50,690 nt of DNA, filler included, from Ionaspis alba (GCA_964255285.1; 2 parts of 2 records of this genome joined end to end with filler, not necessarily neighbours in it), one strand, 5' to 3'; positions 24,994 through 50,690 are shown, counted from the whole stretch's first letter. Program-made: numbers and translations. The notes: a model not told the origin generated them from the sequence alone.

Positions 24994-25311
24994 AAGGAGC
25001 AGGTCGCCCCAGTCGTTGGATAATTCATATCCCGGGCTTTTCCTTCTTGGATACGTCCGGATCTTGGGCTCCCTTCGAGCAGGCCCAACAACAGTAAGCC
25101 AGTAAGCTTGAAGAAGGCGTCTATACAAGAACGATCTCTCCCGAAGTGGAGTAGGTGGCAGAACCATTGCGCTGGAATGCTCGAAGGCAAAGCTTGGAAG
25201 TCGGAACCACTCGATGGGTTAGTCGAAGGAGAAGTCGCTCTACCCTAGGTGCTACGGCCGACAGTATAGGGGATAGGATGTATTGAATACATCTCTTTGG
25301 GTCAAAGTGGA

Positions 25312-25411
25312 NNNNNNNNNNNNNNNNNNNNNNNNNNNNNNNNNNNNNNNNNNNNTTAATTAATTAANNNNNNNNNNNNNNNNNNNNNNNNNNNNNNNNN
25401 NNNNNNNNNNN
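25312..25411. other. Artificial contig linker (44 N + TTAATTAATTAA + 44 N; stops in all six frames)
   Basis: TTAATTAATTAA at 25356-25367, centred in a 100-base N block. Confidence 0.9.
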
Positions 25412-25526
25412 GCTCAGTGTTAGCCGTTTCCGCGATATAAGTACCACACTATCACACGGAACTCTCTTGGTCAAGCCTTTGGAAGAATATCGTACCGTCC
25501 TGCTCTTGGTTGAAGGAACCGTCCCC

Positions 25527-27859: not shown

Positions 27860-28715
27860 CTACATTTCTAAAGCCGCCATTTCTGCCTTAACAGCCATCA
27901 GCACCTCCTCAGCTGTCGCATATTGGTGGTTCCAGCAACCCTGGATAACTTTTCCACCCGTCAGCTTGGACAAGTTTGGAAAGCGACCTTGCTCAAATAG
28001 CGTATTGACTTCGGTCTGATACTCGAACTTGCTCTCGTCACTCGGAGGCGGACTGGTCCTGTAAGGCCAGTAGCCGGTCAGAATGGTGTGAAAAATGGAC
28101 CCGAGACTGAAGATATCGATGGCGGGCGTAGACTCCCAGGGCAGTCTCGGGTCAAAGAAAGGGTCGTCCGGTAGGTGACCGCCATCCAGTCCCATCTCCT
28201 CGCACGTGGACCCACCAAAGTCGCAGAGCCAGAGATCGAGAGAGGCTTCTCCGCCTGACGATGGGTTCGTTGCGTTGACAAGATAGTTTTCTGGCCGCAG
28301 ATCCGAGTGGATGACGCCGTTCGCGTGCAAATGGGCGATAGCCTCCGTTGCTTGCAAGCACCATTTCCAGCGTAGAGGATCATCCAGAAAAGCGTTTTTC
28401 TCGTCAATGTACGCCTGAAGGCTTCCACAATTTGCTTCATCAAACATGATGCCTGGATCGTCACCTTGTCGACGATATCTTTGAACATTTAGCTTTGGTA
28501 GCCGAGAATAGGTGGAAGAGAACAGACGGGACAATCCTTGGATGTTCGCCTAGCCTTTCTAGAATCTGTTTCTCAATGGAGAAAGCTTTGTCGACTTCCT
28601 CAATCCTTTCAGGATAGGTTTGCCCTGCCCATTCCTGTCTAGGTATCTTAAGGATGACACCGGGCGCTGGGCGAAAGAATAGCGAGGTCGAGCCTTGGCA
28701 ATGCACAAGCTTCAT
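27860..28715 (-). CDS. Divergent fungal protein kinase-like protein, two exons
   Basis: VILKIP, FSIEKQILERLGEHPRIV, catalytic loop IHSDLRPEN, CDFGGS and DIFSLGS. Confidence 0.8.
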
Positions 28716-28937
28716 CTTTGAAGAGTACTAGTAGGAAATATCTTAGACGAGGAGGGCAACTGAAAAAAGGATAGGGTTCGAGTATTCAGAGTGGACGTGG
28801 GAAATTCAGCGTTTATATATTTCCTGGTCTCTATCGTCGAAGCTGAGGTTGTGCCCGCCGGTGTCCTCAATTAGAGGTATCTAGATCCGTGCTTGCGTTG
28901 GATTGAGTGATTTTCGTAAGTTGTCCATTGTGGATTT

Positions 28938-29340
28938 CTAGCTGCCTTGAACAAGTTTCACGCCGCTTGATGTCATTAGACGGAGGGCTAGCTGCCTCTG
29001 AAGAACGTCCAGGAGATAATCTGCGCTGGTAACAAGACCGAAAAGACTGAATGCGTAAAGATATGGCCAGGTGGATGAAAGTGAGCCTATCAGCTCTTGC
29101 AATGACCAGTAAAACCGATCGCTGAACTCGTCAAAGTTTTCGAAATTGGTGAAGTAAAGTTTTAGGTGCATAAGGTTATGTATGGAGCTAATTGTTTCCA
29201 AAAGTAATTGGAACGTCATCTGTTTCAAACTATTAGCCAGTGCCGGAGGAGAGTTCCTGTATCTCGTCGAGTAATGGTGACCAAATGTCCTCGAGTGTAT
29301 CCTAAGGGTTCAAGATCTGCACACAGGCATCTATGCAAAG
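28938..29340 (-). pseudogene. Possible degraded F-box-associated/LRR-like gene remnant
   Basis: Leu-periodic fragment (TWPYLYAFSLFGLVTSADYLLDVLQRQLALRL); no intact gene structure. Weak assignment. Confidence 0.25.
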
Positions 29341-29508
29341 GCATCTTACTATGAATCGCGATTGCCGCAGAGCGTGGAGTATGTTAGACAATTGGCGCAC
29401 ACGGTTGGTCTGGAAACCTGGCTACAAGCGGAGGACAAATCTGCGGGTTTCCCGTAATTTAGAACCGTGAAAATCTGAGGTGTAGGGCTTGAATCTGCAC
29501 CGCGTACA

Positions 29509-32061: not shown

Positions 32062-32671
32062 CCCTTCTCAATATCCGGAGCGCTCACCAACAAACCACCA
32101 ATTGACGAGGAAGATGATGGTTGGGGGTTGTTTGCAATATACAATGCACACATTGGTTACAAAACGATTGGGGTTTGTTGTACAGTGAGCTTGGAGTTTT
32201 TGGAATAGCAAGGAGCTTTGGTACCTCTTGAAACACTCATCAGTCGAGTAACTTTATTTTGTTGCTGNNNNNNNNNNNNNNNNNNNNNNNNNNNNNNNNN
32301 NNNNNNNNNNNNNNNNNNNNNNNNNNNNNNNNNNNNNNNNNNNNNNNNNNNNNNNNNNNNNNNNNNNACTAAGCTTGCCCAAGTCATTACGGACGCGAAA
32401 ATAATGGCGACATTGTAGTATTCCAAGCTGATTTACTACTAGTCTAAGCGAAAATGTGTAATACTGGACCACTAGCTTGGTCACATGATCCCCCCTGAGC
32501 CCCTAATTCCTACATACTCGATTTTCCCTACGCGTCGAGGTGTCAGCTAGCTCCAACTATTCAGGGCTTCCTTACTCTATTGTTTACGGATATCGAATCA
32601 AGAAATCCCAATCTGGGGGACCTAAATTGGAAATTATGACTTCGATATACTCCATTGCAATTAAGATTCTA

Positions 32672-33189
32672 CGGCAAATTACAGAAGTGAACCCCAAAAG
32701 CGACTTTTTTTACTATTTTAGACCCCATTTTACAAATTTAACCTCGTTTATTTTACTAAAATGAACCTCTACGTATAGAAACCTTAATAACATCACCAGT
32801 TTTTGTCCAAATAAAATAAATAAAGATGATATAGAATCGTTTCAGCGAGCGCATTCAAATAAATCAAAAATAACTAAAAATGGTTAGTTATTAAAAAAGT
32901 TATTGGAGGTAGAAGATAGAGGTAACATCGTGACAATTAACATACTACGCCAATAATATATATTTTAATATTATCGCCATTTTCTACTCAAATTTAGAAT
33001 ACAAAAATGATTTAGAACCGTCTCAACGAGCGCATTTAAATGAATCAAAAATTATTTAAAACGGCTGTATATTCAAAAAGTTATTGAAGGTCGAATATAT
33101 TGGCGAGCATGGGAGGGGGTCAAAATTGTAAAAAAAAGGTTAGATTAGTAAAAAAGGTTGCTTTTGGGGTTCATTTCTGTAATTTGCCG
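32672..33189. mobile_element. Mutator-type MITE (518 bp, AT-rich, long imperfect TIRs, 9-bp TSD)
   Basis: The left end CGGCAAATTACAGAAGTGAACCCCAAAAGC is inverted at the right end (GCTTTTGGGGTTCATTTCTGTAATTTGCCG). AAGATTCTA flanks both sides, at 32663-32671 and 33190-33198. Confidence 0.9.
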
Positions 33190-33337
33190 AAGATTCTAGC
33201 CAATGTCGGCAGGAGCCTAACTAGCGTTCAACCTGCATTGAGCATCTTCAACCCGTTAGGAGCAGGCTAAGTGCATGGCACCTAAAATCGTTCTCATGCC
33301 GTGAACAGTATGCTCTACTTTGCTTGACGCATTTACT

Positions 33338-35981
33338 TTATACACCAAAGCCCAAACGGGATATTTTTCTCAAGAGCTCTTTAGCGCCTTCAGGCAAACG
33401 ATCTTGCAATACATCTTCTTGCGCGTCATCAGCTCCATATTCCCGAAGAAGACGAATAATTCTCTCATTTCCAAGCAAGAGTGCAGAAGGGACTGCCTCC
33501 CGCCAAAAGCCTGATGAATGATGGGTTTTTGCTCCTTTTTTAAGAAGCTCATGGACCAGCTCCTCATCATCTTCAACTATCGCTGCGTTGAGTGGCCGAC
33601 GAAAAGAACTTTCACCTGCAGCGTTGACATCCGCTCCCATATCGAGCATCAAACGCACAATTTCTGCGTGTCCTTGGGATATTGCGACTGTTAGCGGAGA
33701 TCCCTCAGGTCCACCGGCGTTGATATCGCAGCATGTGGCAAGATTGAGGCTTGAGAAGGAAGCTCCATCCGTGCCAGTTCCTAGGCCAGCAAGCCCCATC
33801 ATTATTTTGAGTATACGAATCAACCCCCAATACGATGCATAGTAGACTGGAGTTGCGGTCTTGGATATCCGCGAGAGGCCAAACACCATATACTTACCGG
33901 GGTTTTCCAGTGCTGTGCAAGCCTGTAATGATCGTTGTTCCTCAAACAACTTCAACACAAGAAAATCTAACTCGTTGGTTTGACACGAAATTTTCTTGTA
34001 AAGAAGACACCATTCCCGGGCAGCAAAATAAGCCAGTGGATATTCCTTCCCGAGTTCTAGGTACATTTCAAATCTTTCTTCGTGTTCCTTGCCATGACAT
34101 TTCTCAAGCACTTCAGAACAGCGATCCCAAAGGTGATTGTCTAGCAGGTAAATGAGACAAATATGAAGAAGTTCTTTATGAGCCGTGAAGCTGTCTAGGT
34201 TGAACTCAGCTGGCTTTTCAAGTCGCGTAGAGCTGGATAGCAGGTATTGCTGAACGGAATAGTGAGCGATGCGAGCAATTGGAACCAATTTGAATTCGTG
34301 ATTCTGGAGCGTTGGGTCCTGACCGGGGTATATTTCCACGAGAGTGGGACATATGAAGAGTATATCTTGATGATCTTCAAGCCGACGTTTACGATGGGAC
34401 CCGACCGGTTGATTCACATCAACTGCAACGCCTTCGGCCAATTCAGACACTTTTAGAGGCCTTGATGCGAAACAGAGCAAGGTCAGAATTCGGCGGGCAT
34501 CTTCGATCAAATTTGGATCGATGTGTCTAAGCATTCGCTCGTACGTCTCAGCAAGCGTCCGAGGTAGGGAATTGAGTAGGCGGTCGAGGTGTTCTTCGCT
34601 TCGGGGGCAGAATTGAAGGGAATATAGTTGGCATTCTACCCATCGGAACCTTTATATCGTTATTTAATCACTTTAGCAATGTCATAAGGTCGTTAGTTTA
34701 GGCCACGTACATTCCATTGGCTTTTTCGGACAGTATATTTGCAATCTTACCCCGATATGGGTACCATCTCCGAAGTTTGTGGTCCGTATCAAGGCGAGAC
34801 TTAACATAGTTGGAGATGTCCTGGTCTAATCCTTTATCTGCCATCATAACCTGTTGACTCGTGGGAAGCGCAAGGCAAGACCCAATGTCTGGCTCGTCTC
34901 GGCTGGTGATTAAAAGATGTAATTTTTGAATTTTCCAATTCCGAATTGTCTCAAATACATCCAACACCCTTTGTCGTGGTCCATGTTGGGGACTCTCGTC
35001 AAGAGCGTCTATTGCAATAAACACCTCAAAGAACTCTTCGCACAAAAGTCGTAGGTATTGAATGAGGACTGATGCGGGAGGTGTGCCGGGTTCGTACGTT
35101 TTGTTCAATTGCCGGAGATGTTTATGGTCGTTTTTCAGTTGATTTGAGAGCTGAAGAAGCAAAGCTCGAAGCATGGCTATTTCGTCCTGTTTGGACTGAT
35201 CGCTGAAGGTAAAATAGAAAAAAGCAATGCCGGTTCTTGAGCTGACACTTGAACGCCGAAAAAGAAATTGAATGGCTGTTGAGCATAACACCGACTTTCC
35301 AGACCCGGCAAAGCCATGAAGCCAAATTACCGAACTTTCTTTGGTCAGCCAACTCAAAAATTGAGGACTGTCAATGAACCAACGGCCTGTAGCAGGATGC
35401 TTCTTGGCACAGGCCGCATTGTGTTCAATTGTGGCATCTGGGGCTTTGAGCCATGCGCATAAATGCGACGAGGTTTGCTCGATCCTGACCCGGTCTATGA
35501 GAGCTTTTGTTTCTTCAGATCCACGAAGCGTTTGCTGAGCATTCAGTAAGTTCAGCGCAAGGGAAAGAGTGTTCCGAGCCTCAGCGATATCCTTGTTAAG
35601 CTTTAACAAAGCATTCTTCTGGAAGTAATAAGTCAATCTATTGACTTGTGTTTTGGTTTTAGATTTCAGATTGTCGGATGGTAGCTTTTGAAACTTCTGG
35701 CACTTTTCCTCCAGTTCTTGAATCAGTTTAACGACCTTCTCTAACGACGTTTCGAGACTCTTCATCAAGTCGACCTCATCTTGTTGAAATTCTCGAGAAT
35801 GCAAAGTGCTCCTAAGATTACGAGAAATATCCAGAAGGTCCTCAAGATTATCGCAGATAGCACAACGTTCGGAGTCTTGTTGGAAATATGAAGTGAAAAA
35901 TTCGATGAGCGACAGCGTGATATTTGTTGCTAGCGACACCAAGCCTGCCAGACTCCCTGCGATTGATAATGGGTCAGGCAT
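33338..35981 (-). CDS. Fungal NLR-like STAND protein: HeLo-like N-terminus, NACHT, winged helix and ankyrin repeats; intron 34650-34710
   Basis: N-terminal MPDPLSIAGSLAGLVSLA, Walker A GFAGSGKS, Walker B IAIDALDE, LLITSR, spliced GMFRWVECQL, AHYSVQQYL and ankyrin repeats (SPLTVAISQGHAEIVRLMLDMGADVN). Confidence 0.92.
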
Positions 35982-36501
35982 GGATATTGATTATGCTGCA
36001 ACTTTAGCAGCAAATGGGCGGTAATGCCGTAAGGAAGGACACAAGCCGAAATTCAATGCGGTCTGCACCGAATTTATCGGAGCTGAAAGCCAGGACAATC
36101 GCTTTGAGTACCTTTACGGCCAAATCGCCTACAACGGCCACGTAAGTTTCAAATCTGGAGGCAATAGACGTTGCTTGAAATCCCACTTGAGGCCATTCAA
36201 TATTCAGAGATCGACTTTTGGCACCTGAAGCTGCAATTTTAAGAAGCGACCGAGGGAAGTCAGATTAAGTGAGTGAAATCCGACCCTCTTTCAGCCTTGC
36301 ACGTGCTGCGCCTTCGTGACTGCCTAATTTACCCCCTGCTCTCGAGTTCCCTCTTACGCCACCTTCGCCTCTACCGTCGCAAGCTGAAAGGAAGGCCCCA
36401 GGACGCTCTTGGCGGCCCTCTGCTTAGTATAGAAGAAATAGTCCGCTAATTCAGGCTGTATTTGGACTGCACAAAATATCGAGACATATATTGTATATAT
36501 A

Positions 36502-36965
36502 CTCTGAGCTTAGGAGTTGAGAATCCTATTTCCGTTCGGAAAAGGGAGCAGCGAGGGAGCAAAGCGGCGCAGCAAGGGAGCACCGGGGGAGCACGAGGGA
36601 GCATAGGAGAGCAGAAAGGGAGGAAAAGCACGAAGTGGGCCTTAGTGAGGGAGCAATGCGGCGGTACCGTATATTTGAAACTCGAGGATACTATACACAT
36701 ATATATATATTATATCGACCCCGAACTTAGGATTAGAGATTGCCGTTCGGGGCCAGGAAAGGGAGCAGGGCCGNNNNNNNNNNNNNNNNNNNNNNNNNNN
36801 NNNNNNNNNNNNNNNNNNNNNNNNNNNNNNNNNNNNNNNNNNNNNNNNNNNNNNNNNNNNNNNNNNNNNNNNNGGAAAGGGAGCAGGGCCGCTTTAGAGG
36901 GAGCACAGGGGAAGCAAGGGGGAGCACGGAAGGAGTACACGAGGGAGTATTAAAGGAGGAGCCCG
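36502..36965 (+). repeat. Two tandem copies of the GGGAGCA-rich repeat family separated by a TA-rich spacer
   Basis: Degenerate CTCTGAGCTTAGG at 36502 and CCCCGAACTTAGG at 36719, each followed by GAAAGGGAGCAG and (GAGGGAGCA)n. Confidence 0.85.
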
Positions 36966-37282
36966 TACCGACTCTTAGCAACAGACAAGGCAACACAAGG
37001 GAGTCGGAGTTGGCTGCTTTGTACCTGCATGTAGCTGCCGAAGATCTTTTTATAAATTTTGCCAAGCCTACTACCTAAGCTCAGCCTCCTCTTGCCTAGA
37101 CTGAGGACCTTCATAGAATGCCTACGCGCTATCTGAGGATCGAGAGAATGCCTGGTGGAGACGTCTGCTCCGATCTACTCGAATATGTCAAGAACCAAGC
37201 CACTTATCTTTTTAATTGGACACCAATCTTCATTCGCGTAGAATATAATTAGTTATATAAAACTTATCATGATTATAGGTTA

Positions 37283-37417
37283 GCCGGGGTAGCTCAATCG
37301 GTAAGATGCTTGATATAACCCGCTGAATACCTGAATTCCCTAACCTCTTGTAGGTAGAGCGTGTGGCTCTTAAGAAAGAAAACCTCAAGGTCGCGGGTTC
37401 GAGCCCCGCCTTCGGCT
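37283..37417 (+). tRNA. tRNA-Lys(CTT) with a 53-nt D-loop insertion (37301-37353) and a 9-nt canonical anticodon-loop intron (37373-37381)
   Basis: Acceptor stem GCCGGGG/CTTCGGC, A box TAGCTCAATCGG, D stem GCTC/GAGC, anticodon CTT at 37369-37371, T arm GCGGG-TTCGAGC-CCCGC, and T-runs immediately downstream. Confidence 0.92.
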
Positions 37418-37421
37418 TAAA

Positions 37422-37437
37422 TTTTTCTATTTTTTTA
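37422..37437 (+). terminator. RNA polymerase III terminator (oligo-T) of the tRNA gene
   Basis: TTTTT begins 5 nt after the discriminator base and is followed by a longer T run. Confidence 0.75.
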
Positions 37438-37841
37438 CTTATTTCTATTTTTTGTGCCCTCAACTTCAAAATAGGATGAGCTGATTGCGGTAGTCTTTTT
37501 TTTTTTTTAACTGAACTCTAGTCATTATGGAGTCGGGCAAGTGGCTTAGTGAAGGTGCGGACCAGTTTGATATTGAGTAGCAGACGTGGGTGAATGTCTT
37601 ACTCAGGATATCAGGTTAAGGGTCACACATTTAGTCGTAATAACAAGGGGTGCGATAACTCTGGGCGCATGTATACCATATTGACAGCCGTATATAATAT
37701 GTAGAAGCGGCTATGGACCAGAGCTTTCGCTTTCCAATCACAGCACTGCTTGCGTTCTATCCCATCGCCCGGCGCAAAAACATTAAGATTTGGTCCTACA
37801 CAGGCTTCATTTTCAACCATCCTGTTCCCATTCCCTTACCC

Positions 37842-39723
37842 ATGCCACGAAATCGCGTTGTCAACAATCTAGATCACGTGCCAACTGACCTGTAAGCTAC
37901 AAAAGTTCCTTCCCCCCCCCCGACGAAAGCCCAGGAAGCTTCCAAAGCACGCGCCATTACGAATTGCTTCTACCTATCGGTATAGTAATCTCCCTCCTCC
38001 CATCTTGGCCGACGACCCTTATGAGATCTTTACCCTGTTCTTCGACGATGAAACCCTTACTATCCTCGCCAACAATGCCAATGAGAACGCCTAAGTACAT
38101 CCAGCTCCAGCCGATAAGCCTTATACGAGAACATGGTCTCCAACGATGAAAAAAGAGCTTCGCGCTTACATTACTGCTTACGTTTGGATGGGTATATATC
38201 TAGAGAAAGAAGTTAAGGACATTTGGAATACCGACCCAGCTAAAGGGTTAATACATGATATCGTTCGTTAGCATATCAGCTTGAAACATTGGGAACAAAT
38301 CCAAAAATTCTTCAACGCCTCCAAGCCTTTGCCTTAAGGCCAAAAGACTCCATTCGACAAGCTAAAGCCATTGAGCGAGCATTTGCGGAAGAAATTCAAG
38401 GACTACTGGCATATAGGGGCCCACCTAGCCGTTGACGAAACGACTTAACGATTCATGGGTCGTTCCAAAGAGACCGTCAATTTGCCCTCAAAGCCTATAC
38501 CTAAGGGCTTCAATATCTGGGTTGTGGCCAATCATGGCTATGTTCTTGACTGGCTCTACCATGCCAAAAGCGACGACGGAGGGCCGGTAGACCTTGATGA
38601 TTTCTGGATGGATGATAAAAGGTTCTCGTGACACAAGCGGTGGTATTAGACCTACTGAGTCAAGATGGTATCTCAAAGGACTTCTGCCATACAATATGGC
38701 TAGATAACCTATTCACGTCAGCCCGACTACTAGCTACATTGAAAGAGGAGGGCTTTAGTGCAGCAGGGACTGTTCGAACACAAAAACCCGCCCGAGAGGT
38801 ACCATAGAGACCTCAGGATCCACAATGCAGCGGAAGAAGCTACCAAAGGAGGCCAACAAAGGGTCGGATAATCCATTTCTGCCCTGAAATTGGAGCATAA
38901 CGCTCAACTGGAATAGGACAAATTGTACGGACGCTTGAGCCAAGACGGCCAAGTACTGGAATTCGCTTAGAAAGACCAAAATGTGGTGTTATTCATGACT
39001 ACTATTGACGATGGCCAGAATACAGTGACTAGATCTCGCCGTCAACCTACCAAAACAGCTACCAATGCGCGTACCTCTCGAGCCATATTCGGAGACGACG
39101 CTGTTAAGAAACTAGCAATACCCCAACTCATTGATATATACAACCATTTCATAGGAGGGGTCGACCAAGCCGACCAGCTCCGCTCCTATAATCATATACC
39201 GCGCATATCCGTCGAGAACTGGAAGCCGCTATAGCATTTTCTGTTGAATACCTCAAGTGTGAACCCTTAAAACATCAGCCATTGTATACCTCAACGGCCA
39301 TTCGGTGAACCATAGGATCATTCGACCCACAAGGCCTTTCGAACAAGGCTAGCCGCTCAACTATTCGCTCAGTCGAAACGACCATACACGATAAGTGTTC
39401 ATTCTAGAGCTACTCTCAAACGGCCTCTGCATGCGCAAGTACACCAAGCAAGCGCGGCCGACCATGATGAGCCGATGAGGGTAGGAGACAAACAGAAGAA
39501 ATGTTCTGTATGTGTAGCGAGAGGGAGTAATGTGAAGCCAGAGAATGAGAGACTAAAGAGAAAGCCTTTGGGAGAATTGTCTCAAAATACCATACAATTG
39601 GCCGCTGGTCGCGACAGGATACGCCCAAAGCAGTACCCCAAGGGGCTCTATGGGTGTCAGCTATGTGCTGTCTACGTATGTCGCAAAGGAGTTTGCTGGA
39701 GCGACTATATTCGAGCGATATGA
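37842..39723 (+). mobile_element. piggyBac-family transposase pseudogene (multiple stops and frameshifts)
   Basis: PYEIFTLFFDDE, HLAVDE (38422-38439), PSKPIPKGFNIW, WLDNLFTS, AAGTVR, YNHFIGGVDQADQLRSY and a C-terminal Cys-rich domain (CSVC...CQLCAVYVC...C). Confidence 0.92.
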
Positions 39724-39926
39724 TAGGTAGCTATGTATGAGGAATAGGGGGTGAGTTATCATGGAGGTCGTCGAGCGATGGGATAACTTCATCGCACTAA
39801 AAATCTCCCTCAAAGTGGCTCTATTACTACGAGCATTTTACTACGTAGAAGGATTCACCCCCCACCCCCTATACGGGCCATGCCCCCACGGGGGTCACCT
39901 ACCCTAGAGCACACCCGAACGTGGCT

Positions 39927-41696
39927 TTAATTACCATTGGTCTTTTGAATGCCAGCACACCCCTCGCAGTCAGCCTCCTCACAGATAGTGTAATGATTCC
40001 CTTTGACCTGTTCGATTCGCTTGTACAGACTTGCACAGATGAATCGATGTGGCTGTGATAAAGTGTATTGTTTATCCCTTCCCTTCACGTGGTCTGCCAG
40101 AGAGTTCATCTGACATAGTCGCATATGGGTTGGTGTTTTCCGTCCCTGAGTCACCCACAACTCTCTCCAATGTATTTCTTCCTGCTTCCTAAGAACATAG
40201 GTACACTTAATACGCATACTATACGCAGGATCGCAACGTCGTGCATTTGGAGCGCAAAGGGCAGAAGATGGCTGATTCTCCGCGAAGTCGACCTTGAGAA
40301 GGATACTGAGACCTTCTTGGCGTCGCATTATTTCACCGTCCTCGGTGAGGTAGGGAATTGGGATCTTCATGCCTCGGACGGTCAAATCAAGGGCTATCCG
40401 ATTCAAGTCATTCCGCCGATTAATTGTTTTCTCCCACCCTTGANNNNNNNNNNNNNNNNNNNNNNNNNNNNNNNNNNNNNNNNNNNNNNNNNNNNNNNNN
40501 NNNNNNNNNNNNNNNNNNNNNNNNNNNNNNNNNNNNNNNNNNNCTTGAAGCAAGGCTTCAGACGATGCATCTCCTTGAAGACGAATCTCTTGTTCACTCC
40601 GTCGCCGGCGATGCTCATTATCGATAACGTGGACCAAAGACTGACTAGACTCAAGAATGGAATCAACTGATGTCTTTAAATAACGACTCACCCAGCAAAG
40701 AAAGTCCCAGTCGAAGTCTGAACGTTTGAGAACCATCCCGGACCGCTTTTCCTGATCCCGATACATATAGAGTGCTGGGAAAGGCGCTGATCCTGGTTTG
40801 CCGCGACGATGTTTCTGTATAGTCGTCTCATGTGATTTGGCAGTGAAATCCTTACCACTTAACCAAAGAATGAAATCACATTGTACATCGAAGCGGATCG
40901 CGGCTAAGTGTCCAGACGTCGGGTTTCTATACCCGAATGACGGGTGGTCGATTTTTGCCACGATTCTCCGAAGCGTTGTTCCAGCTATATTGAATTCTAA
41001 TGCGAATTGAACATTGACATCTTCGCATGTGGAAAATGTAACAATCTTGGAAGATTTAGGAATCGCTTTGGTATAGGACTCCCAAGCGCATACTCCGCCG
41101 ATGATAAAGAGTGGACACGGAATAAGATCCAAGACATGTAATGAGAAGGAGTCATGACACGCACGTAACTTCCTTCCCCATGACTTCATAGGACAACCCA
41201 GGGGCCCTGCTGCCGCGCGCCAATGCCAATCAAAACAGAACGTGAATGCGTCTGAAAAGCCCTTCTGGGCAAGCACCTGAACGGATTGGTTATGGGTATC
41301 CCAGAATGGTCCCGCAATGAAGGTGTCCTCGTCTTCAGCCTTGTAATGCTGCACGTGCAATACCACACCAACTCCTGCATCCAGAGGTCCAGAATGTTGA
41401 ACCAGCTTTTGAGACTCTTTCTCGGATAGCTGGAGTTCTTCTTTTTCAAAATCGTGTCGCATCTTCTTAAATTTTGGATAGAGGTCCCCACCTTTCATCA
41501 TTGATAGATTTTGAGGGCTTAGAAAGTCGAAGACCGCTTGAATTTCAACTGAGTTTAGAGACCCAGTAATGGCGTCTGAAAATTGCTGAGCAAAGATTAA
41601 CGGACTTGATGACGAGAATGGCAGCTCTATCGTAGCTGCCGCTGCCGCTGCCGTCGCTCGATCACAGAGAGCAGAGAAAATAGTGCGAGAATCCAT
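39927..41696 (-). CDS. Uncharacterised fungal protein, about 554 aa if the gap is closed by the 5-bp overlap
   Basis: Long open frame on both sides of the 40444-40543 gap. The flanks share CTTGA, which gives a continuous ..SSEALLQGWEKT.. Confidence 0.7.
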   Translation of the reverse strand: MDSRTIFSALCDRATAAAAAATIELPFSSSSPLIFAQQFSDAITGSLNSVEIQAVFDFLSPQNLSMMKGGDLYPKFKKMRHDFEKEELQLSEKESQKLVQHSGPLDAGVGVVLHVQHYKAEDEDTFIAGPFWDTHNQSVQVLAQKGFSDAFTFCFDWHWRAAAGPLGCPMKSWGRKLRACHDSFSLHVLDLIPCPLFIIGGVCAWESYTKAIPKSSKIVTFSTCEDVNVQFALEFNIAGTTLRRIVAKIDHPSFGYRNPTSGHLAAIRFDVQCDFILWLSGKDFTAKSHETTIQKHRRGKPGSAPFPALYMYRDQEKRSGMVLKRSDFDWDFLCWVSRYLKTSVDSILESSQSLVHVIDNEHRRRRSEQEIRLQGDASSEALLQXXXXXXXXXXXXXXXXXXXXXXXXXXXXXXXXXXQGWEKTINRRNDLNRIALDLTVRGMKIPIPYLTEDGEIMRRQEGLSILLKVDFAENQPSSALCAPNARRCDPAYSMRIKCTYVLRKQEEIHWRELWVTQGRKTPTHMRLCQMNSLADHVKGRDKQYTLSQPHRFICASLYKRIEQVKGNHYTICEEADCEGCAGIQKTNGN

Positions 41697-42149
41697 ATCG
41701 CGAAAGGTGATATTGTTGAGTGACGCTTGTGTTTGGGAAATTTTGACAGCTATGGACTTCTTTCAAGGATACAAGATTATTTTTGACAACAAAGGAATGT
41801 CAGGACCGTGCACAGAGCGAGTCGATGTGGGTGTTGAATTGAAAAGACAACTAACGAAGGAGAGAAGAAGAGGATTGGAGAAGCCCAGACTACTGAAAGT
41901 AAATATATGACCGCTGTATAGAACACACGCCAAGTGTCAGGCACAAAGGAGCATGACACAGTGTCTGGTGTCGAATACGGACAAAGGGTGCTGAATGCAT
42001 GCGACAACACTTGCATCAACACCTGTCACGAGGCCGATCGTGATAGGAAATAACACTGAAAGAAGTGACATAGGCTACATCACATGTGCATGGACTAATT
42101 AAAAAGTCAACCGACATCTGTTCCTATATACTGTATACTTGTATCAACA

Positions 42150-42775
42150 CATAATATGTAACAAGGAGGGCAGCTCAAGCCGAATAATGGGGATCCATTT
42201 CCGACTCTACTAAGTGCGGCCATACACTGCCTTACGATGCTCACTCNNNNNNNNNNNNNNNNNNNNNNNNNNNNNNNNNNNNNNNNNNNNNNNNNNNNNN
42301 NNNNNNNNNNNNNNNNNNNNNNNNNNNNNNNNNNNNNNNNNNNNNNCTCCCTCATGCTCCCCCTGTACTCAACCAGTGCTCCTCCGCTATGCCGCTTTAG
42401 AAGGAGCCGCGAGGGAGCCGGCGGGAGCAGGGGAAGGCAGAGGGAGAGCACATCAACGAAACAGTCTCTAGCGGGGGAGCAAAGCGGCGGCATCTGAGTC
42501 AGCGATCGGTCACGTGTTGGCTTAGGTTCGGGGATGCTATATATCTATATACACACCCCGAACTTAGGATCTGAGATTACCGCTTTCGTTCGGGAAAGGG
42601 AGCAGGGCCGCTTTAAAGGGAGTAGCGAGGGAGCATCGAGGGAGCACGGGGGAGCATCGAGAGAGCAGCGAGGGAGCAAGGGGGAGCACTATGGGGCAGT
42701 GCAGGGGCGTAGCAGGTGGGAGCCTGAAATAGATTCCCTGGCCTTCGGCTCAAGCTGTCCTCATTGTTTTTTAAT
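42150..42775. repeat. Back-to-back copies of the GGGAGCA repeat family (minus copy about 42150-42390, partial plus copy 42391-42533, plus copy 42556-42775)
   Basis: The reverse complement of 42150-42246 (GAGCATCGTAAGGCAGTGTATGG..GAAATGGATCCCC..TTCGGCTTGAGCTG) aligns with 42685-42770. TTAGGTTCGGGG and CCCCGAACTTAG face each other across a TA-rich spacer. Confidence 0.85.
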
Positions 42776-43093
42776 ACCTTAAGCCCCGCCTACTGCCTAG
42801 ACTTCGCTACTTCCGTAGAATCCTTCGAGAGTTGAAGCAATTGGGGGATCTCCAGCAAGGCTCCCGTAATAGATTAGCCGTTGTGCCCTGCCAAGCTATC
42901 CCCAGTAGGCAGAACCAACTTAACTTCCTTACGCAACTACAATTCCGTTATAAGCTATGCGATTACAGTATGAACGCGCGACCGCTTCAGGAACGAACGA
43001 CTACTCATAGATACCGTCAACAGATCATTTTTCATACTCCACACGGTCCTGAACCCTTCAGCCCGGCAGTCGTCGCCAAGTGCCAACATCCAT

Positions 43094-45220
43094 ATGGCGG
43101 GCGCAACTTACAGCTCGCTGCAGTCAGAACATGAATTGTCAGAGCTACGTATTGGCGCTGAATCTGGAAGAGGCATGACGAGAAATGAGCCATCTTCAAA
43201 GGACCTGGTGCTACGATGGTGGGCTTGGGAACTTGTCATGGGCAGCCTCGCACTCATCGCGTTCGTGAGCCTGGTCATCGTCCTGGCCGTGGAAGATGGG
43301 ACTCCATCGCGAAACTTTGGGCCACTCACCTTGAACGCTATCGACACTATCCTTACTACCGTAATTGGCAGCGCGATGATGGAGTTCACTGGAGCTGCAC
43401 TCAGTCAGAATTCGTGGAATTACTTCGGACAGTATCGCAAAAAGCTCAATGGGGGCATTGTGAGCGTAGTGAGACCTGCTGAAGATCTCAACTTGCTTGA
43501 CGAAGCCTCGAGAGGCCCCGTCGGCAGCTTGCAGCTAATATTGCGGCGAGGACCACTGTCAGTGCCCTGAACCTAGCCTCTGGTTAGTAAAAGCAGCATG
43601 CTGACGTAGAGCAGAAGCCTTGCAGCTCTGGGCGCAGCAGTCACAATATTGAACACTGTCTTTGCTACCTTCACGCAGCAGCTGGTGTCTCTTGAGACGC
43701 TGGACGCTGCCAATGGAACGGCCAGACCATTTCCCCAATGTCGGCAATACGACGCTACTAGCGTTGTCGACAGCTCCACCAAAGCTGCCATCATTGCTTC
43801 GAGTGTGCAGGGCAACAATGCTGTGCCCTTACAACCGCAGTGTCCGACCGGGAATTGTACCTTTCCTCACAACATTCCAACACTCGCCATCTGTGGTAGC
43901 TGCACAGATGTCACAGATCGTCTTGACAACGGTAACACTTGCGACTGGTCTCTATCGGCCAATAAGCCTGAAGGCAAACCATGCGTTTACAAGCTGCCAA
44001 ATGGACCTTCACTAGAGTTTTTACCAGCTCATAGCGTTGACACAAGGCCAGGACCCTTTGCGATCTGGAACGCTACCAACCTCCTAGGTGCTAACGGCGA
44101 CGGCGATCTGACCGTCAAACGACCGGATTTGTCATCTCTCGCCTATAGCGACGCTTCGGTCGTGTATGTCATGAAGTTCGCAACGATTGGACTGCCCCCG
44201 AGTGTTGCAGATCCACTGCTCCGCCATAGTGCCGCAGACCACGGGAGTCTACCGAAGATGCAAGCTCAAGAGTGTGCTCTTTGGTTCTGTACGTAGCAAG
44301 GGCATGACGAAGGTATGGCTTACTGATTCTGATAGGTCTTAACTCTTACGAGGTGTCAGTCTCGATGGGTCGAGCAAGCGTCAATCTCACCAAAAGCACC
44401 TCGAAAATGACCCCTCAGAGCACCAGCGGAACGAGTCCAGACAGTCTGCTCACAGGACCTAGCTTCATCGACTATGACGGCTTCGACATCCATCCTCCGC
44501 CACGAAACTCTATCGATGCATACGGACTAAGAAGCAACTTTGCCTGGAATTCGATGCAGGCAGCCACCGCAATGCTGCTTCCAAGGAACAACAGTTATGT
44601 ATGGGGAGCCCCCGGGTACTTTGGTGGCTTCAATTATGGGAATAATACCGACAATGTCTTGTCCCTGATCGAGGGCGTTTACCAGCATAGCGGCAATCTG
44701 CAGAACTGGACGCTAAACCTTGCAGCAGCCTTGACAAGCAACCTCGGCGAAGTAGCTCCCGCAAATGACCGCTCTTTCGCTAACGGTACAGCTTACTATG
44801 ATGGCACAGCCACAAGGTCCGAAACATTCTTCAAGATTCGATGGGGTGAGTCATCCTGGTCAAGATCGTCCAGAAGCTGCTGACGATGTCGAAGAATGGA
44901 TATCCCTTCCAATCCTCGTACTTATTCTGGCTTTTGCTTTCTTCCTAGTCACGGTGTTTCAAACTCAGCGAAGGAATGTACGACCCTGGAAAGCGAACCC
45001 GTTGGTCATGCTTCTTGCGGACGTGGATGAGGAGCTGAGACACCAATCTGCGGTCAGTGGTGGATTGGAGAAAGTGAAAGGTCTAAGTAATTCCGTCGCG
45101 AAGGCCAGATTGGGTCTACATTGGCCGGTAGCAGGCGGGCTGCTGTTCACCAGTGGCGCTCACCGCGATGAAAATGCTTCGAAGCGAAATGTCACAAACA
45201 TGACTGAGCAGCATGACTGA
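43094..45220 (+). CDS. DUF3176-family membrane protein, multi-exon
   Basis: WWAWEL, LTLNAI, ALSQxxW, DEASRGPVGSL, CPTGNCTF, TLAICGSCTDVT, ECALWFC, IRW|EWISLP and RPWKANPL. Confidence 0.85.
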
Positions 45221-45319
45221 GTCAGCAGCATGTCATTTGGTAGGCTAGTTACATTCGGAATACGCAAGTCTCGCCTCCCCTCTCGTTGAACCCACCAACG
45301 TTCAAGGCATCTTTAGGGA

Positions 45320-45450
45320 AGAACAACTCCTTTCACACTTCGACCTACAGGAGCGACGGCACCTACCAGCTTGAAGGAGAATGCGATATCCATGAATCGA
45401 TGAGTGGTGCAGGATTTGGCCAGGGTCAAGAGCAGGCATCACGCTGAGCT
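45320..45450 (+). pseudogene. Remnant of the C-terminus of a HET-6-like protein
   Basis: GRTTPFTLRPT, then a frameshift, then SDGTYQLEGECDIHESMSG. This resembles the P.vLRp...y.lvGecyvhg.M.G tail of HET proteins. Confidence 0.5.
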
Positions 45451-45827
45451 GAGGCTAGTACGGAGCTGACGATACATTGAGAATCAGGCAGTGAAAGTTT
45501 TCTTCACCAAGACTGAACCCCACTGCCGACCAGACCCATTGCATCTACTAATGTCCTTGAAGCCTTCTACAAAGCTTCCAGACGACATGCTCACACCTCG
45601 GACGGCTGCCGTGACTACGACGTCGCCAGACGCTCGGATTGACCCCGCATCCCCAAGTAGCAAATGAACAGTTGGAGGAACCATATCTTGGAGATCCTGA
45701 GATCCTGAGGAGTTGAGTCCGTCAAGACGTCAAGAAAAAACGAGGCTTCAACTATCTTTCTATTCCCTTCGTGAATCTCCCATTTCGAGCAAGCGAATGC
45801 CTCATACTTCACCCTCGTTGTCCCATC

Positions 45828-46320
45828 ATGTCCACACAAACAGTCTTCTCCCGTGGCATCTACCACTGCCTTCCCACCTTCTCCCCTCCCCCCACTAATA
45901 ACGGCTACACGGCAATAACCACCGGCGCCGATGGCATCTCAGGCTACTACATGCTCCGCGTCCTCTCGCAATCCCCTGCCCGCTGGTCCAAGATCTACTG
46001 CCTCTCACGCCGCCCACCACTTATCCCAGGCAGCCTTCCCAACAACGCCGAGCATATCGCGCTTGACTTTCTCAAGCAGCCCGAGGAGATCGCCAACACG
46101 TTGAAGGAGAAAGGGTCCAAGCAAGTTGACTATGTGTTCTTCTTCAGCTAAAGTCCCGCCGAAGGAGGGGGGCGGGCTGTGGAGTGACGCTGAGGAGGTA
46201 AAACCCTTCTGTTTGCCTGCTCTTTGACTTCCCGTCTCTTCCCCGCAAACTTGAAAGCAAAAAGAAGGGAAGTATACTCGAACCCACACTGAGTTATGAA
46301 CCAGATGTGCAGAGTCAACT
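45828..46320 (+). pseudogene. 5' fragment of a PRISE-like (progesterone 5-beta-reductase family) NAD(P)-dependent short-chain reductase
   Basis: TAITTGADGISG Rossmann motif, WSKIYCLSRR and VDYVFFFS*, then PPKEGGGLWSDAEE|MCRVN; truncated afterwards. Confidence 0.8.
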
Positions 46321-46343
46321 GCTACTAACTAGTCGGCGACTAG

Positions 46344-46688
46344 GAGATCAGTGTCGAGCGGGAATATGATGGGGAATACTCTCAGGTCCACGTGCGGGCG
46401 GGCACCTCAGACGACAGCTGTGTCACAATATTCTCCAAGAGCGGTCGAAATTTGACTATGGATCGGAAGTCCCTTCTTCCCACAATGAAGAATTGTCTCA
46501 GCGTGGATACGCCAGATTGCAGGATTCAACGACAGTGCATCCTGGTGGGAGAGTTGTTGGTATGGAATGATCGCACGCAAGAGATCATGCCATTCTTCAA
46601 AGTCCGGAGATACGTCACCCGGGAAGGACACCATTTAGGCTGTGATCAAGACTCTCCTCGTTCCCCTGACGAGAATAAGGCTGTTTGA
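46344..46688 (+). pseudogene. Internal fragment of a fungal ATP-dependent DNA ligase (adenylation domain)
   Basis: SVEREYDGEYSQVHV (motif I KxDG with Lys replaced by Glu, 46362-46373), IFSKSGR and CILVGELLVW (motif III). Confidence 0.75.
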
Positions 46689-46899
46689 TACTGAATTGAA
46701 TATCCTAATTCCCCTGAGACTGCTTCGAATCAGCAACCACTAATGGTAGGAACACCATCCTCCTGATTCCGGAGACTGGGATTGACATCGACCGAGACCT
46801 CGAGGCTTCCATAGTGGAGCTATTACCTGAGGAAGACTCAACCGCTGGGGAGGCTCCGAAGAAGCGAGGTCGTCGATGACATTAGCGATGTTCATCAGC

Positions 46900-47095
46900 G
46901 ATGACATTGCATCAGCATAGCCAGCTTTTGCCAATTTGAGAATCCCTGTCGATTTTGGTGTCTGCGTAATAGTGTGATCAGGGTGCCACTTGCGCAGTAC
47001 GTCAATAATGCCAATATTGGTCAGTATTCCCGATTTCGAGAAGTGGCTTCGCAGCTCTTTCATCACACTGGGGTGTGGGTCGCCATCGCAGGGCT
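46900..47095 (-). pseudogene. Possible N-terminal fragment of a fungal AAA+ ATPase
   Basis: HFSKSGILTNIGIIDVLRKWHPDHTITQT..GILKLAKAGYADA resembles the N-terminus of a fungal AAA family; no P-loop is present. Confidence 0.35.
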
Positions 47096-47559
47096 GCTGT
47101 ATTCGCTCTGGTGAGGCTGCTAGGGCAATATTCTTTGCCACAACGCTCCTCAACAAGACTTTCTGATTGCGGGGACAGAAGAGTCGAAATTGTTCGAGAA
47201 CCCGGCGTGTGCAAACGTGGCGGTGAGCCATGACACGTGTGCCCGGCCATGAGTTTTCTGAAATTGGCGTAGCTGCAGTCCAGCTGCTCCTGTAATCAAC
47301 CAAGCCACTGGTGGTGGACCACAGTCGTAGAACGAAATTAAGGATTGTCCAGTTCAAGCGACCACATACTAGTGTCTGAAATGTGTCATACAAGCAACGT
47401 TGCCCTCCGCGTAGACTACTGACCAAGCGGCAAAGAGTAGGCGCATTGAGTTCACACTTTGATGGCATGCCTTATAGCACAATATCTAACGTGTGGGTTT
47501 TCGCGAGGAAGTTATGTTGGTTCTGCGTACTCCGGGGTGTCTTGGCAGGGCTGAACGGG

Positions 47560-47846
47560 CTCGACGGGCTCTGCTCCCCCTTGCTCCCTCNNNNNNNNNN
47601 NNNNNNNNNNNNNNNNNNNNNNNNNNNNNNNNNNNNNNNNNNNNNNNNNNNNNNNNNNNNNNNNNNNNNNNNNNNNNNNNNNNNNNNNNNTTGCTCCCTC
47701 GATGCTCCCTCGATGCTGCCTCTAAAGCGGCCCTGCTCCCTTTCCCGTCCCGGAACGGCAATTTCAGATCCTAAGTTCGGGTATTCCTGAGCACGAGGGA
47801 GCAATGAGGGAGCAGGGGAGAGCAGCGAGGGAGCATGGGGGAGCAG
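47560..47846. repeat. GGGAGCA repeat family: minus copy (terminus at 47781) abutting a plus-strand GGGAGCA run (47791-47846)
   Basis: The reverse complement reads CCCGAACTTAGGATCTGAAATTGCCGTTCCGGGACGGGAAAGGGAGCAGGGCCGCTTTAGAGG. Confidence 0.85.
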
Positions 47847-47959
47847 ATTGCAGAGAAAACCATTCCTTGCCTCTGGACTACGATACGAAATGGCTGAATG
47901 CTCCAGCGGAGTACCTCCTCAAAGACTGATGTACGCTGCACAGCGCTTTATCTCATAGT

Positions 47960-48959
47960 GTGATCGATAAAGATAAATCTAGAATCATGATGTTTCTGTT
48001 CACTCTGACTTATTTCCAGCACGCGATACAAGAGCTTGTCCAGACACTTCTGACTTTCGCAACGGTCCCCGAGCTTCGTGCGACAAGATCACCTGATTTT
48101 GCTTCTTTCCAACTATCGCATGACTACAGACCGGATAAAGCGAAATTGATAGACATGACTAATAATAGGGGCCGCGCGTTCTATCTGTGTCCGAAATCCA
48201 ACCTGCCTCAATTCTCTTACGAAACAATCGCAGAGACTGATCAGCGTCGAAGGAATGAATACGAAGCGGCAGTGAAGAAATGTGTCGGCCGCTTCACGAA
48301 CGCCCTCATTGGCCAGTGATCTGAAGCAAATGTTTGCAATTCAGTGAGCCTTGATTTCGACATCTATATTTTCGTAGAGAAGGCCACAAATGATGTGGGG
48401 AGCCACAACGTCCTTTCTTCGGCCTGTCCACTGGGTCGCAAGTGCAAAGAACGTCAACACGGTCGAATGCGCGGTGCTAAGCCCATACGAAGCTCACACA
48501 TTACTGCCATCCATACGCCAGCACAAGATGATCACCTTGCATGTTTACTCACCTCGTGTCAGCATGTCTGTGCGTATATTAGAAGATCTCTCGTTTTGCG
48601 CCATTCCTGCGATACCCAAATGTCGGCCCCACCCATCTTTCGTCATGCAGCTCAATATATTTGCAGATCAGCTCTATTTGAGAAGCTACGAGAAGTATCT
48701 GTCGGTCTGTCGGTTCTTGAGGCTGTGTTTTCGCTCGCCGTGCGAGCAAATTCAGATCGGCTGCGACGGATTCGTCAGATTAACTTGCAGGCCAGAGTTC
48801 GACGCAATCATGAAGAAAGAACGTCTCTTTCGAACCAGTCCAGTTGAGTTTCTGAGAATGCTGATTGCGTTGAGAAGAAAAAGACAGAATTATCAAAAGT
48901 CTGATTTTTATAGAATTCTGCATGGTGAATTGCTTGTCAAAGAACAGTTCCGAGAATGA
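47960..48959 (+). pseudogene. Internally deleted remnant of a large DUF3638/DUF3645-type protein
   Basis: FLRPVHWV, VLSPYEA, LHVYSPRV, QLNIFADQLY, CDGFV and SPVEFLRML match the C-terminus of this family. An upstream piece (LVQTLLTFATVPEL) is fused directly to it. Confidence 0.7.
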
Positions 48960-49344
48960 AGAAATTCGAGTCACTAGCGATCTCGCAACATATGATTGAG
49001 CTATGTGACGGTGCCTATCTTTCTGTTCCTTTCACTCATCTGAATACTCTGTTCTTTACCATTTTGTGTCACGAGATATTGAACAAACGCTGAATGAGGA
49101 GATTGTCCGTAAAATTTATCGATTTTCTACACAGGAAATCGATCTCGTTCTCACCCTTACTCATATCTGGAAAATAGTTACCAGTGAAAGCTTCTGGAAC
49201 GCACCCCAATGATCCACACCAGATGTGGTGCACTTGTTGGCACAGGACGACGCCAAGAGCCGTCAGCTGGTCTCGAGCAGCGAATTGGAGGAGCCTATCC
49301 ATTAGTAAGCTTGAGCCTGGCGACAGAATGCTGTTATTAATAAC

Positions 49345-49507
49345 GTGAGCAGCTATAGCCGGGTACGAGGGAGCCATTTCAGGCTCCCAGCTGCTGCGCC
49401 CCTGCACTGCCCCATAGTGCTCCCTCTTGCTCCCTCGCTGCTCCCTCTACAGCGGCTCTGCTCTCTTTCCTGATCAAAAATGGCAATCCCAAATTCGAAG
49501 TTCGGGG
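49345..49507 (-). repeat. GGGAGCA repeat family copy, inverted relative to 42556-42775, with TA-rich outer flank
   Basis: The reverse complement reads CCCCGAACTTCGAATTTGGGATTGCC..GAGGGAGCACTATGGGGCAGTGCAGGGGCGCAGCAGCTGGGAGCCTGAAATGG, closely matching 42685-42730. Confidence 0.88.
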
Positions 49508-50690
49508 TGTATATAATGTATATATATACATCAAAGATATAAGATGAGAACAGAAAATGATTGAAAACCAAAGGAAAGTTTAGGCCGTTAATGAATATCT
49601 AGCGTTGAGCCAAGCCACCTCAATCTTGAGGACCAGCTTGTTGTACACTCTGCAATACGTACGTACTTCTATACAAAACCCCCATTTATCACACGAGCCC
49701 TCTATTTGCCCAAATCAATCAATTCTACCCATCTAGTCGGTCTTCCCCTCTCCCCTCCATATTCCTACGAACAAGCCGACACCCACCCCATTCCAAACCA
49801 CGCCTACTAACCCGGCAATTCATTTCTCCAGACCTTGATGTCCGAGGAACTGGTCAAGGCCATCCAGCAGCAGCCCTTGGGCAGGCATCCTTTCCAGGCC
49901 ATTGAATCGACCAGATGCGAGCTGTACGCGATGATCCTTGTAGACCCGCCGGAAACACGTTGGAAAAAGAAAGAAAAAGAGAGAAAAAAAGCGAATCAGT
50001 CCGCTACCCGCACAACGATTCTGCATTTCCAAATGTAGCCGATCGATAGACTTGACCTTCGCGGACAGTCGGCGAAGTTGGGGAAAGCTTGGATAACGGC
50101 CATGCCTAGACGTTTTCGATGGAGTCTGTATCGGCGCTGCAAATGCACTAGCAACGTTCCGAGTCACTGTTACGGTTGGACTGGAGCGGAGGGGAAACGC
50201 CTCGGCTGATGAGGGAAAGGAGGTAGGGGATCAGGAGAGCGCGGGGGTGGAGGAGAGGGAGGTGAGGAGTTAGGTTGTGGTGACTTTGCTTTTGGCAGTT
50301 TGTCGTGGTAGCTGTTGTGGGTCGGGGGCTGTTGGTGGTGATCAGTGGATCTATAGGAGGGGGTGCGATAGTACGGAGTATTGCTTCGATGGGTTGGGGA
50401 TGATGATTATAGCGGTAGGAGTGGTACGGTGGGTGAGGAAGCGAGAGGGGGTTTGAGATGGGGATTGCGGGAGATGCGAGAGAGATGGAAAGCAGTTTTA
50501 TTAATACGTTTTCCCGTTCTGAAGAATTGTATTGGGGTACTAAAAATTAGGTAGCTCATTCGTCCGTGCCTGTGAAAGAGAAAGGCAAAATTGGTATAAA
50601 ACACCCCCCATCTCCCCCAGACCATGCTCAATCATAACATCGTGCAGTCGTCCCAGCCTCTCCCATCCCCTCACCACACCCCACATTCAC

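Follow-up and report, generated by a model that had tools for sequence, protein, structure and literature searches.

Short tandem motifs lying just inside the ends are typical of Pack-type CACTA and MULE-like transposons, and Foldback elements have ends made of short tandem subrepeats in variable number, inverted arrangements of which recombine and invert the DNA between them. As described in one account (PMC4067079), HINE/DINE-1 elements have 13–15-bp subterminal inverted repeats, central tandem repeats and a palindrome near the 3′ end, with 38–60 nt to the terminus. According to the same source, they leave the target site unchanged and occur near duplication breakpoints, and the fungal Helentron example given there is Mucor. 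MITEs (miniature inverted-repeat transposable elements) with terminal inverted repeats (TIRs) and internal tandem repeats include DTC84, from the clam Donax (PMC3879986), and Epichloe MITE families (PMC3227409). Here we analysed a 50,690-nt stretch of the Ionaspis alba assembly (the window), which represents a draft scaffold of a filamentous ascomycete and carries a repeat with GGGAGCA-rich arrays between 36486 and 49527.

A preliminary description had taken these repeats for inward-facing pairs bounding 2–6 kb of Pack-type cargo. Our results did not support such cassettes. We consider it likely that 36486–49527 is a nest of at least nine independent whole or broken copies of one short, non-coding, MITE-like mobile repeat, whose layout appears closest to that of the Helentron-derived HINE/DINE-1 elements. 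The family is apparently undescribed, since a limited literature search found no description of it.

The repeat and its copies in the window

The unit consists of an AT tract of 20 nt with sharp limits, CACCCCGAACTTAGG, an array of 10–11-nt GGGAGCA units in variable number and, on the far side, either a 135-nt conserved block with a subfamily-specific tail or a short tail with an inverted 13-nt motif. Five matches to the terminal motif CCCCGAACTTMG with at most one mismatch were found in the window against 0.32 expected, and none of 100 shuffles reached five. They lie at 36719(+), 42556(+), 47771–47782(−) and 49496–49507(−), the fifth, at 48067, being unrelated. The pattern GGGAGCA-N3-RGGGAGCA gave 12 matches against 0.01 expected, a count not reached in any shuffle. 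When the copy at 42531–42800 was compared with the whole window by BLAST, its relatives were confined to 36486–49532.

Related loci were obtained by scanning metagenome contigs of up to 1 Mb with a 23-letter core of the end region, which yielded at least 120 stretches, 80 of them with 2-kb flanks. All L-numbered loci below come from these stretches, of which at least 92 are distinct by left flank. Module BLAST and comparison with the related loci resolved the at least nine whole or broken copies in 36486–49527, as follows.

36486–36697 (+): copy A, short complete form; modules LE at 36486–36551 and R2 at 36631–36691 (module BLAST), array at 36541–36626 (TRF)
36699–about 37225 (+): copy B, long form; LE at 36699–36773 (module BLAST)
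about 41700–42390 (−): copy C−, long form with the end region missing; tail, conserved post-array block at 42150–42246, array
42391–42537 (+): copy C′, right half of a short form; array and R1 at 42440–42537, all 98 module positions
42538–about 42988 (+): copy D, long form; AT tract, CCCCGAACTTAG at 42556, array at 42617–42688, conserved block from 42689, tail
47432–47781 (−): copy E, truncated long form; LE(−) at 47723–47781, array, tail like that of copy D
47789–47846 (+): copy F, array only, abutting the end of copy E; repeat-unit matches
48540–48600 (+): degenerate end-region fragment at the edge of a gene remnant; similarity to L016
about 49237–49527 (−): copy G, long form; LE(−) at 49448–49527, PA(−) at 49333–49417; aligns with L088, L016 and L076

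Copy A consists of a degenerate end region, a GGGAGCA array and a tail of the R2 type, which stops immediately before the AT tract of copy B. In copy B, the AT tract leads to CCCCGAACTTAG at 36719 and the array; after these come a variant ('GAGCCCGT type') of the post-array block and a tail that aligns with L050 and L097. At both the A-to-B and the C′-to-D joint, the tail of the first copy runs straight into the second on the same strand. Bases 41700–42242 of copy C− show 82% identity to L030 1098–1679, where the same block is PA(−). The right boundary of copy D was located with contigs from sequencing runs: the repeat contigs of run X1 stop at 42985, and unique pieces of runs X1 and X12 start at 42989. 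Copies D and E have a tail in common, and copy E has neither the AT tract nor the conserved block. Copy G runs from its AT tract through CCCCGAACTTCG and a short array into the conserved block at 49333–49417 and a tail. Around the degenerate fragment, 48411–48606 is 90% identical to L016 1800–1995, a stretch that in L016 follows a DUF3645 frame and enters the array of the copy.

The preliminary description had counted at least seven copies. The repeat is present where it was reported, and its arms, orientations and both inner-end types read as described, the two inner-end types being two subfamilies of post-array tail. The count, however, is at least nine and takes in the short complete copy at 36486–36697, the composite at about 41700–42537 and the fragment at 48540–48600. 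The copies are also longer than had been thought, the one from 42538 reaching about 42988. We likewise find the repeat to be non-coding, non-autonomous and multi-copy, with no cognate enzyme in the window.

Boundaries, junctions and recombination in the wider family

Alignment of 73 copies on CCCC revealed an abrupt outer boundary. The commonest base had a frequency of 0.66–0.99 at positions −20 to −1, 0.47 at −21 and about 0.3–0.4 beyond, indicating that the AT tract is fixed in length and travels with the repeat, being part of it or of its immediate junction. The TA-rich tract previously noted beside the copies is therefore real, but it is the repeat's own or its immediate junction. The outer 12 bases of the tract are less conserved (0.66–0.88) than the eight on the motif side (0.84–0.99), so part of it could be target-derived. 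The base just outside is T in 34 and A in 22 of the 73 copies. In the same alignment the terminus is the AT tract followed by CACCCCGAAC and not CACTA, at odds with the CACTA/CMC comparison made earlier. We also considered whether the ends could be piggyBac termini, which show a TTAA duplication beside CCC...GGG, and rejected this: there is no TTAA, and the four bases before CCCC are TACA in 84–99% of the 73 copies.

Past the array, 86 loci could be followed for at least 300 nt beyond the core. The conserved block was found in 53, a short tail (R1 or R2, within 450 nt) in five and neither in 28, which by BLAST include some diverged blocks and some copies cut within the array. Similarity among independent copies usually stops 125–140 nt into the conserved block, while small subfamilies share 200–350 nt more beyond it; array length is highly variable. 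The end of the R1 tail repeats the terminal 13-nt motif in inverted orientation at 11 of 13 positions (42521–42533 against 42556–42568), and R2 has a weaker version. This inverted motif suggests that the complete short forms are MITE-like units of about 230–300 bp. Overall, the unit is 0.2–0.7 kb long and non-coding, and it occurs at the at least 92 distinct loci plus the window. In L035, L008 and L108, nearly all GGGAGCA units read GGGAGTA, and many other C-to-T or G-to-A changes are present; from the sequence, these substitutions look like repeat-induced point mutation.

The copies lie among ordinary host genes. We examined 110 open reading frames (ORFs) of at least 150 aa from the flanks of 50 loci, on either side of the copies. 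Transaldolase, ribosomal protein L24e, a proteasome ATPase, tryptophan synthase alpha, indoleamine dioxygenase, serine carboxypeptidase, HET frames and NLR frames were among them, and none of the 110 matched a transposase or reverse transcriptase (E 1e-5 or better) or a Rep/helicase. Beside the copy in L033, a 162-aa frame at 2091–2576 (+) matches a Tse2-type ADP-ribosyltransferase domain (PF18648, E 4.5e-09). The idea that the repeat is a mobile promoter was tried and rejected, as downstream ORFs at 40 independent loci amounted to 6021 aa on the same strand and 6473 aa on the opposite strand, i.e., no strand bias. In the window, each copy faces the next frame.

The copies are often joined to one another. 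Eight of 12 complete tail ends directly enter a full copy on the same strand, and the other four meet an AT tract. Back-to-back copies have one common tract of 25–32 nt rather than two of 20. By BLAST, a family end abuts the tract in at least seven of 70 intact copies (nine loci were listed, of which L019 and L097 match the tract only), and more were seen by eye. Such junctions imply that clustering at the tract is far commoner than scattered insertion would produce, and they bear out the earlier observation that copies abut one another at AT tracts. For 40 independent loci, 2 kb was available on either side: an inward-facing partner occurred at three (L016, L062 and L079), a back-to-back one at five and a tandem one at one, and the rest were single.

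Recombination between copies was seen at several loci. L016 and L076 differ by the inversion of a 975-bp segment (positions 1993–2967 of each, oriented on the core), which is bounded by intact and degenerate inverted end regions, and window 48411–49528 has the L076 arrangement. In L031, the L018 left flank and end region are followed by the right side of L037 (98.6% identity); the switch falls inside the array or the conserved block, as ectopic recombination between copies would predict. L006 has this right side too, at 79–84% identity.

The search for empty sites covered 22 pairs of loci that share both flanks, and each member of every pair carries the copy; L006 compared with the window at 40.5 kb gave no clean insertion site. 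No target-site duplications were seen by eye at the truncated copies L007, L011, L101 and L104 or at the inward pairs L079 and L076. L014 differs from L028/L042 by about 710 nt in length, some 440–500 nt upstream of the copy, the loci being otherwise 97–98% identical; this may be another insertion polymorphism, separate from the repeat.

DNA between the copies and the surrounding scaffold

In related fungi the repeat stands alone between ordinary genes, so that what lies between the copies here is probably resident DNA of a region rich in repeats and poor in genes, and not the cargo of paired ends. Four features were recognized in it.

37283–37417 (+): tRNA-like gene outside the repeat family, followed by a T run; Rfam RF00005, 38.4 bits, E 3.9e-05
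37873–39234 (+): decayed piggyBac-type transposase remnant; four PF13843 pieces in profile order, in different frames
39927–41762 (−): 611-codon open frame across a scaffold gap; no Pfam family
42989–47431 (no strand): second interval, probably resident DNA, with several frames and a collinear X12 contig

The first interval had been described as carrying a tRNA, piggyBac sequence and an orphan ORF as cargo. The tRNA-like gene was supported by Rfam, but ARAGORN called no tRNA at 37283–37417. Inspection by eye shows a CTT anticodon loop, about 55–60 extra bases early in the gene and, after the anticodon, a short insertion; it could represent a pseudogene or else an unusual gene with an intron. 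The piggyBac remnant was recovered as four collinear pieces (profile positions 1–25, 30–68, 191–240 and 271–321), but all of them score 12.7–21.9 bits, below the 22.4-bit cut-off. This remnant is decayed, and none was seen beside other copies. The 611-codon frame is not a true orphan: 40544–41612 (−) is 90% identical in DNA to L006/L017 803–1879, beside a repeat copy in two metagenome contigs, which suggests that the frame is conserved or multi-copy. ESM Atlas searches with a 406-aa part of it and with the NAP protein encoded elsewhere in the window returned no useful taxon or function.

In the second interval, the reported DUF3176 frame was recovered at 42974–43570 (+) (PF11374, E 4.3e-13); further plus-strand frames follow it, and a minus-strand frame lies at 46740–47471. 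A 5226-nt X12 contig from a related genome is collinear with 42989–47570 and then enters a repeat copy. The DUF3638 remnant placed in the third interval was not found, Pfam giving no match to this family in 47.9–49.4 kb.

Housekeeping genes, including aspartate kinase, a protein kinase, a P5 ATPase, NAP and myosin V, occupy 1–23 kb of the window. At about 24 kb they give way to HET, kinase-fragment and NACHT/ankyrin NLR frames (24000–36000), with a glycosyltransferase-like frame also present from this point. The nest begins directly after the NLR at 34698–35990, in a stretch poor in long frames. At 25312–25411, two runs of 44 N are separated by 12 bases, a pattern different from the 100-N gaps found in other parts of the window.

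Of the four 100-N gaps within the nest interval, three fall inside GGGAGCA arrays, and the preliminary description had allowed that the scaffold order across the gaps might be wrong. Contigs close three gaps with at most 41 nt, and the fourth has identical letters on its two sides. The gap at 42247–42346 is closed with 14 letters by X11 contigs, and an X13 contig closes it too; the gap at 47591–47690 holds about 41 letters in an X11 contig (contig 14); and the gap at 40444–40543 holds about none, X11 and X12 both joining 40438 straight to 40544. At 36774–36873, an identical 18 letters stand on either side (36756–36891), and an X11 loose end behind 36773 continues like the far side, so the scaffold probably duplicates a piece of the repeat here and the true sequence is continuous. 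As the closed gaps hold 41 nt or less, no long element is concealed in them. The bridging comes mainly from run X11; this run accounts for 0.99 of the words sampled and could itself be the source data. Run X12 has no cover at 35500–36500, most of 37003–39500, 48025–49026 and most of 49528–50500, which proves nothing, and the summed X1 depths over repeat bins are not copy numbers and were not used as such.

Mode of movement and comparison with known systems

In the mechanism we propose, each copy would be its own unit and would be spread as DNA by an enzyme encoded elsewhere. New copies would land or arise at the AT tract of older ones, giving head-to-tail and back-to-back joints, and the dispersed copies would recombine afterwards. 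As to how the DNA is moved, we tentatively favour rolling-circle movement of a Helentron-type non-autonomous element, by analogy with HINE/DINE-1. Read on the minus strand, the unit has an inverted repeat 3–4 nt from its terminus, then the tandem repeats, a second inverted repeat, the self-complementary (AT)6 and the other terminus. Cut-and-paste transposition of a TIR MITE comes next and is somewhat unlikely. Both ends of the short forms abut AT tracts.

Several points weigh against these proposals. The scan recovers a copy only if its 23-nt core is intact, and because the contigs derive from a set of similar assemblies, independence is limited even after de-duplication. For rolling-circle movement, neither a T-run nor a TT target was seen, the 110 flanking ORFs included no Rep/helicase, and RNAalifold gave no conserved hairpin in the end region (−2.5 kcal/mol). 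The only palindrome there is (AT)6; single folds paired the CCCCGAAC bases in 50 of 74 cases, without a consensus. For cut-and-paste, the second inverted end is absent from most copies, and a target-site duplication is inseparable from the AT tract. Furthermore, L020 and L061 have an identical copy whose private array variants match too, and they remain 99.6% identical for at least 2 kb past it, with unrelated sequence outside the tract. L018 and L030/L077 similarly share the same copy and at least 2 kb beyond it at 92–99%, with the transaldolase gene in the shared part and unrelated outer flanks. Such patterns could be what a cargo-carrying end would give.

The last observation leads to an unlikely alternative, in which the fixed AT-tract end would be the start or stop signal of a rolling-circle (Helentron or IS91-like) element, and bypassing the other signal would move kilobases of neighbouring host DNA. 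Whole genes would then be copied, such as the transaldolase in L018/L030 or the RNase III-domain frame in L037, whose right side occurs in L006 at 79%, and at least one interval of the window (e.g., 42989–47431) would have arrived attached to a single end. The two sets of shared copies are as this alternative predicts, and so are the conservation of one end with variation of the other and the precise head-to-tail joints. However, in both sets one member has another family copy abutting the tract, and the pattern could equally reflect breakage at the AT palindrome or a nested insertion that exceeds the 2-kb flank. The far end of the shared block was in no case seen within the 2-kb flanks, and the flanking ORFs again included no Rep/helicase.

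We regard as quite unlikely the possibility that the inward-facing pairs are the terminal inverted repeats of 2–6 kb Pack-type (CACTA or MULE-like) transposons moving captured DNA. The three inward-facing arrangements in the window suggested it, as did the subterminal tandem motifs typical of such elements and the short inward pairs elsewhere (L079, about 0.68 kb; L016/L076, about 1.07 kb; L062). Nevertheless, an inward partner lies within 2 kb at only three of the 40 independent loci, and the termini combine an AT tract with CACCCC instead of CACTA. At the proposed pairs, flanks that should match do not: no direct repeat was found at 36699/42537, 42538/47781 or 47789/49527 beyond the tract itself, within which an (AT)n duplication could be hidden. 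The right end of the first pair is the plus-strand end of a short tail and not an inverted copy, and copy E has neither tract nor conserved block; long terminal inverted repeats at both ends, a hallmark of Pack-MULEs, are thus lacking in both cases. Paired ends are no more alike than unpaired ones, copy D being nearest to copy E in the end region (87%) and to copy G further in (94% over 72 nt). By our own arithmetic, at least five of six alternations among seven oriented pieces arise about one time in nine by chance. The scarcity of pairs, the host-gene flanks, the lack of a duplication, the mismatched ends and the unrelated interiors (a dead piggyBac and a tRNA-like gene) together indicate that the inward pair is not the unit.

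Read on its minus strand, the repeat could also be a short interspersed element (SINE) or the 3′ end of a long one (LINE) with an (AT)n tail, the variable end reflecting 5′ truncation and the clustering reflecting priming at AT tails. In keeping with this, one end is nearly always intact and the other is variable or cut within the array (L007, L011, L101, L104), and both tail-to-tail and head-to-tail joints lie at the AT tract. We nonetheless judge a retroposon very unlikely because the tract length is fixed, a 13-nt inverted repeat stands at the other end of the complete short forms, and no tRNA-like or other RNA family was found inside any window copy (Rfam, E 1 or better). The inspected truncated copies have no flanking duplications, none of the 110 flanking ORFs is a reverse transcriptase, and the tRNA-, 5S- or 7SL-like RNA polymerase III head and variable A/T-rich tail with duplications that define a SINE were not found.

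Least probable of all is an old repeat, immobile now, that was spread and reshuffled mainly through ectopic recombination and segmental duplication and left the nest as a recombination scar: the L016/L076 inversion between inverted end regions, the L018–L037 chimera in L031 and the presence of the copy in both members of all 22 pairs sharing both flanks agree with it, but recombination alone cannot place at least 92 sharply bounded copies between unrelated host genes.

A nest of independent mobile copies, as we read it, is a routine but useful result. The family breaks short-read assemblies, as seen from the three of four scaffold gaps in its arrays, marks a repeat-rich, gene-poor compartment adjoining HET and NLR genes, and is a substrate for inversion and chimeric junctions between related genomes. 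If movement is by rolling circle, HINE-like elements would be extended to filamentous ascomycetes; if single ends do carry whole genes, this would offer these fungi a simple way to duplicate and relocate genes.

Among known systems, Pack-MULE and CACTA/CMC elements share with our repeat the subterminal tandem motifs and, between some inverted copies, host-like DNA. They differ in that the repeat has no CACTA or CACTG termini, no 2–3-bp or 9–11-bp duplication was found at the three proposed pairs (an (AT)n duplication within the tract being possible), paired ends are not more alike than unpaired ones, and solo copies prevail. Foldback elements are similar in their ends of tandem subrepeats in variable number and in their recombining inverted arrangements, whereas here inverted arms within 2 kb occur in only three of 40 loci and a single end is usual.

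The repeat is short, non-coding and present in many copies, as MITEs are. Compared with the TIR MITEs of Donax and Epichloe, it is similarly intergenic with an internal short tandem array and, in its complete short forms, a terminal inverted repeat. It departs from them in that most copies have no second inverted end, a duplication is not separable from the AT tract, and the parent element is not known. From the HINE/DINE-1 elements it differs in that neither T-run termini nor a TT target could be seen, the flanking ORFs yielded no Helentron Rep/helicase partner, and the palindrome is only (AT)6, about 20 nt long, compared with the 38–60 nt to the terminus given for HINEs (PMC4067079). The likeness in layout to HINE/DINE-1 nevertheless appears the closest: the repeat is short and non-coding, has inverted repeats of about 13 nt placed asymmetrically near both ends, where 13–15 bp is described, and variable central tandem repeats, and carries a palindromic stretch between one inverted repeat and the terminus. 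It also shows no recognizable target-site duplication, and it shares with these elements truncated copies, head-to-tail joints and a link to rearrangement breakpoints.

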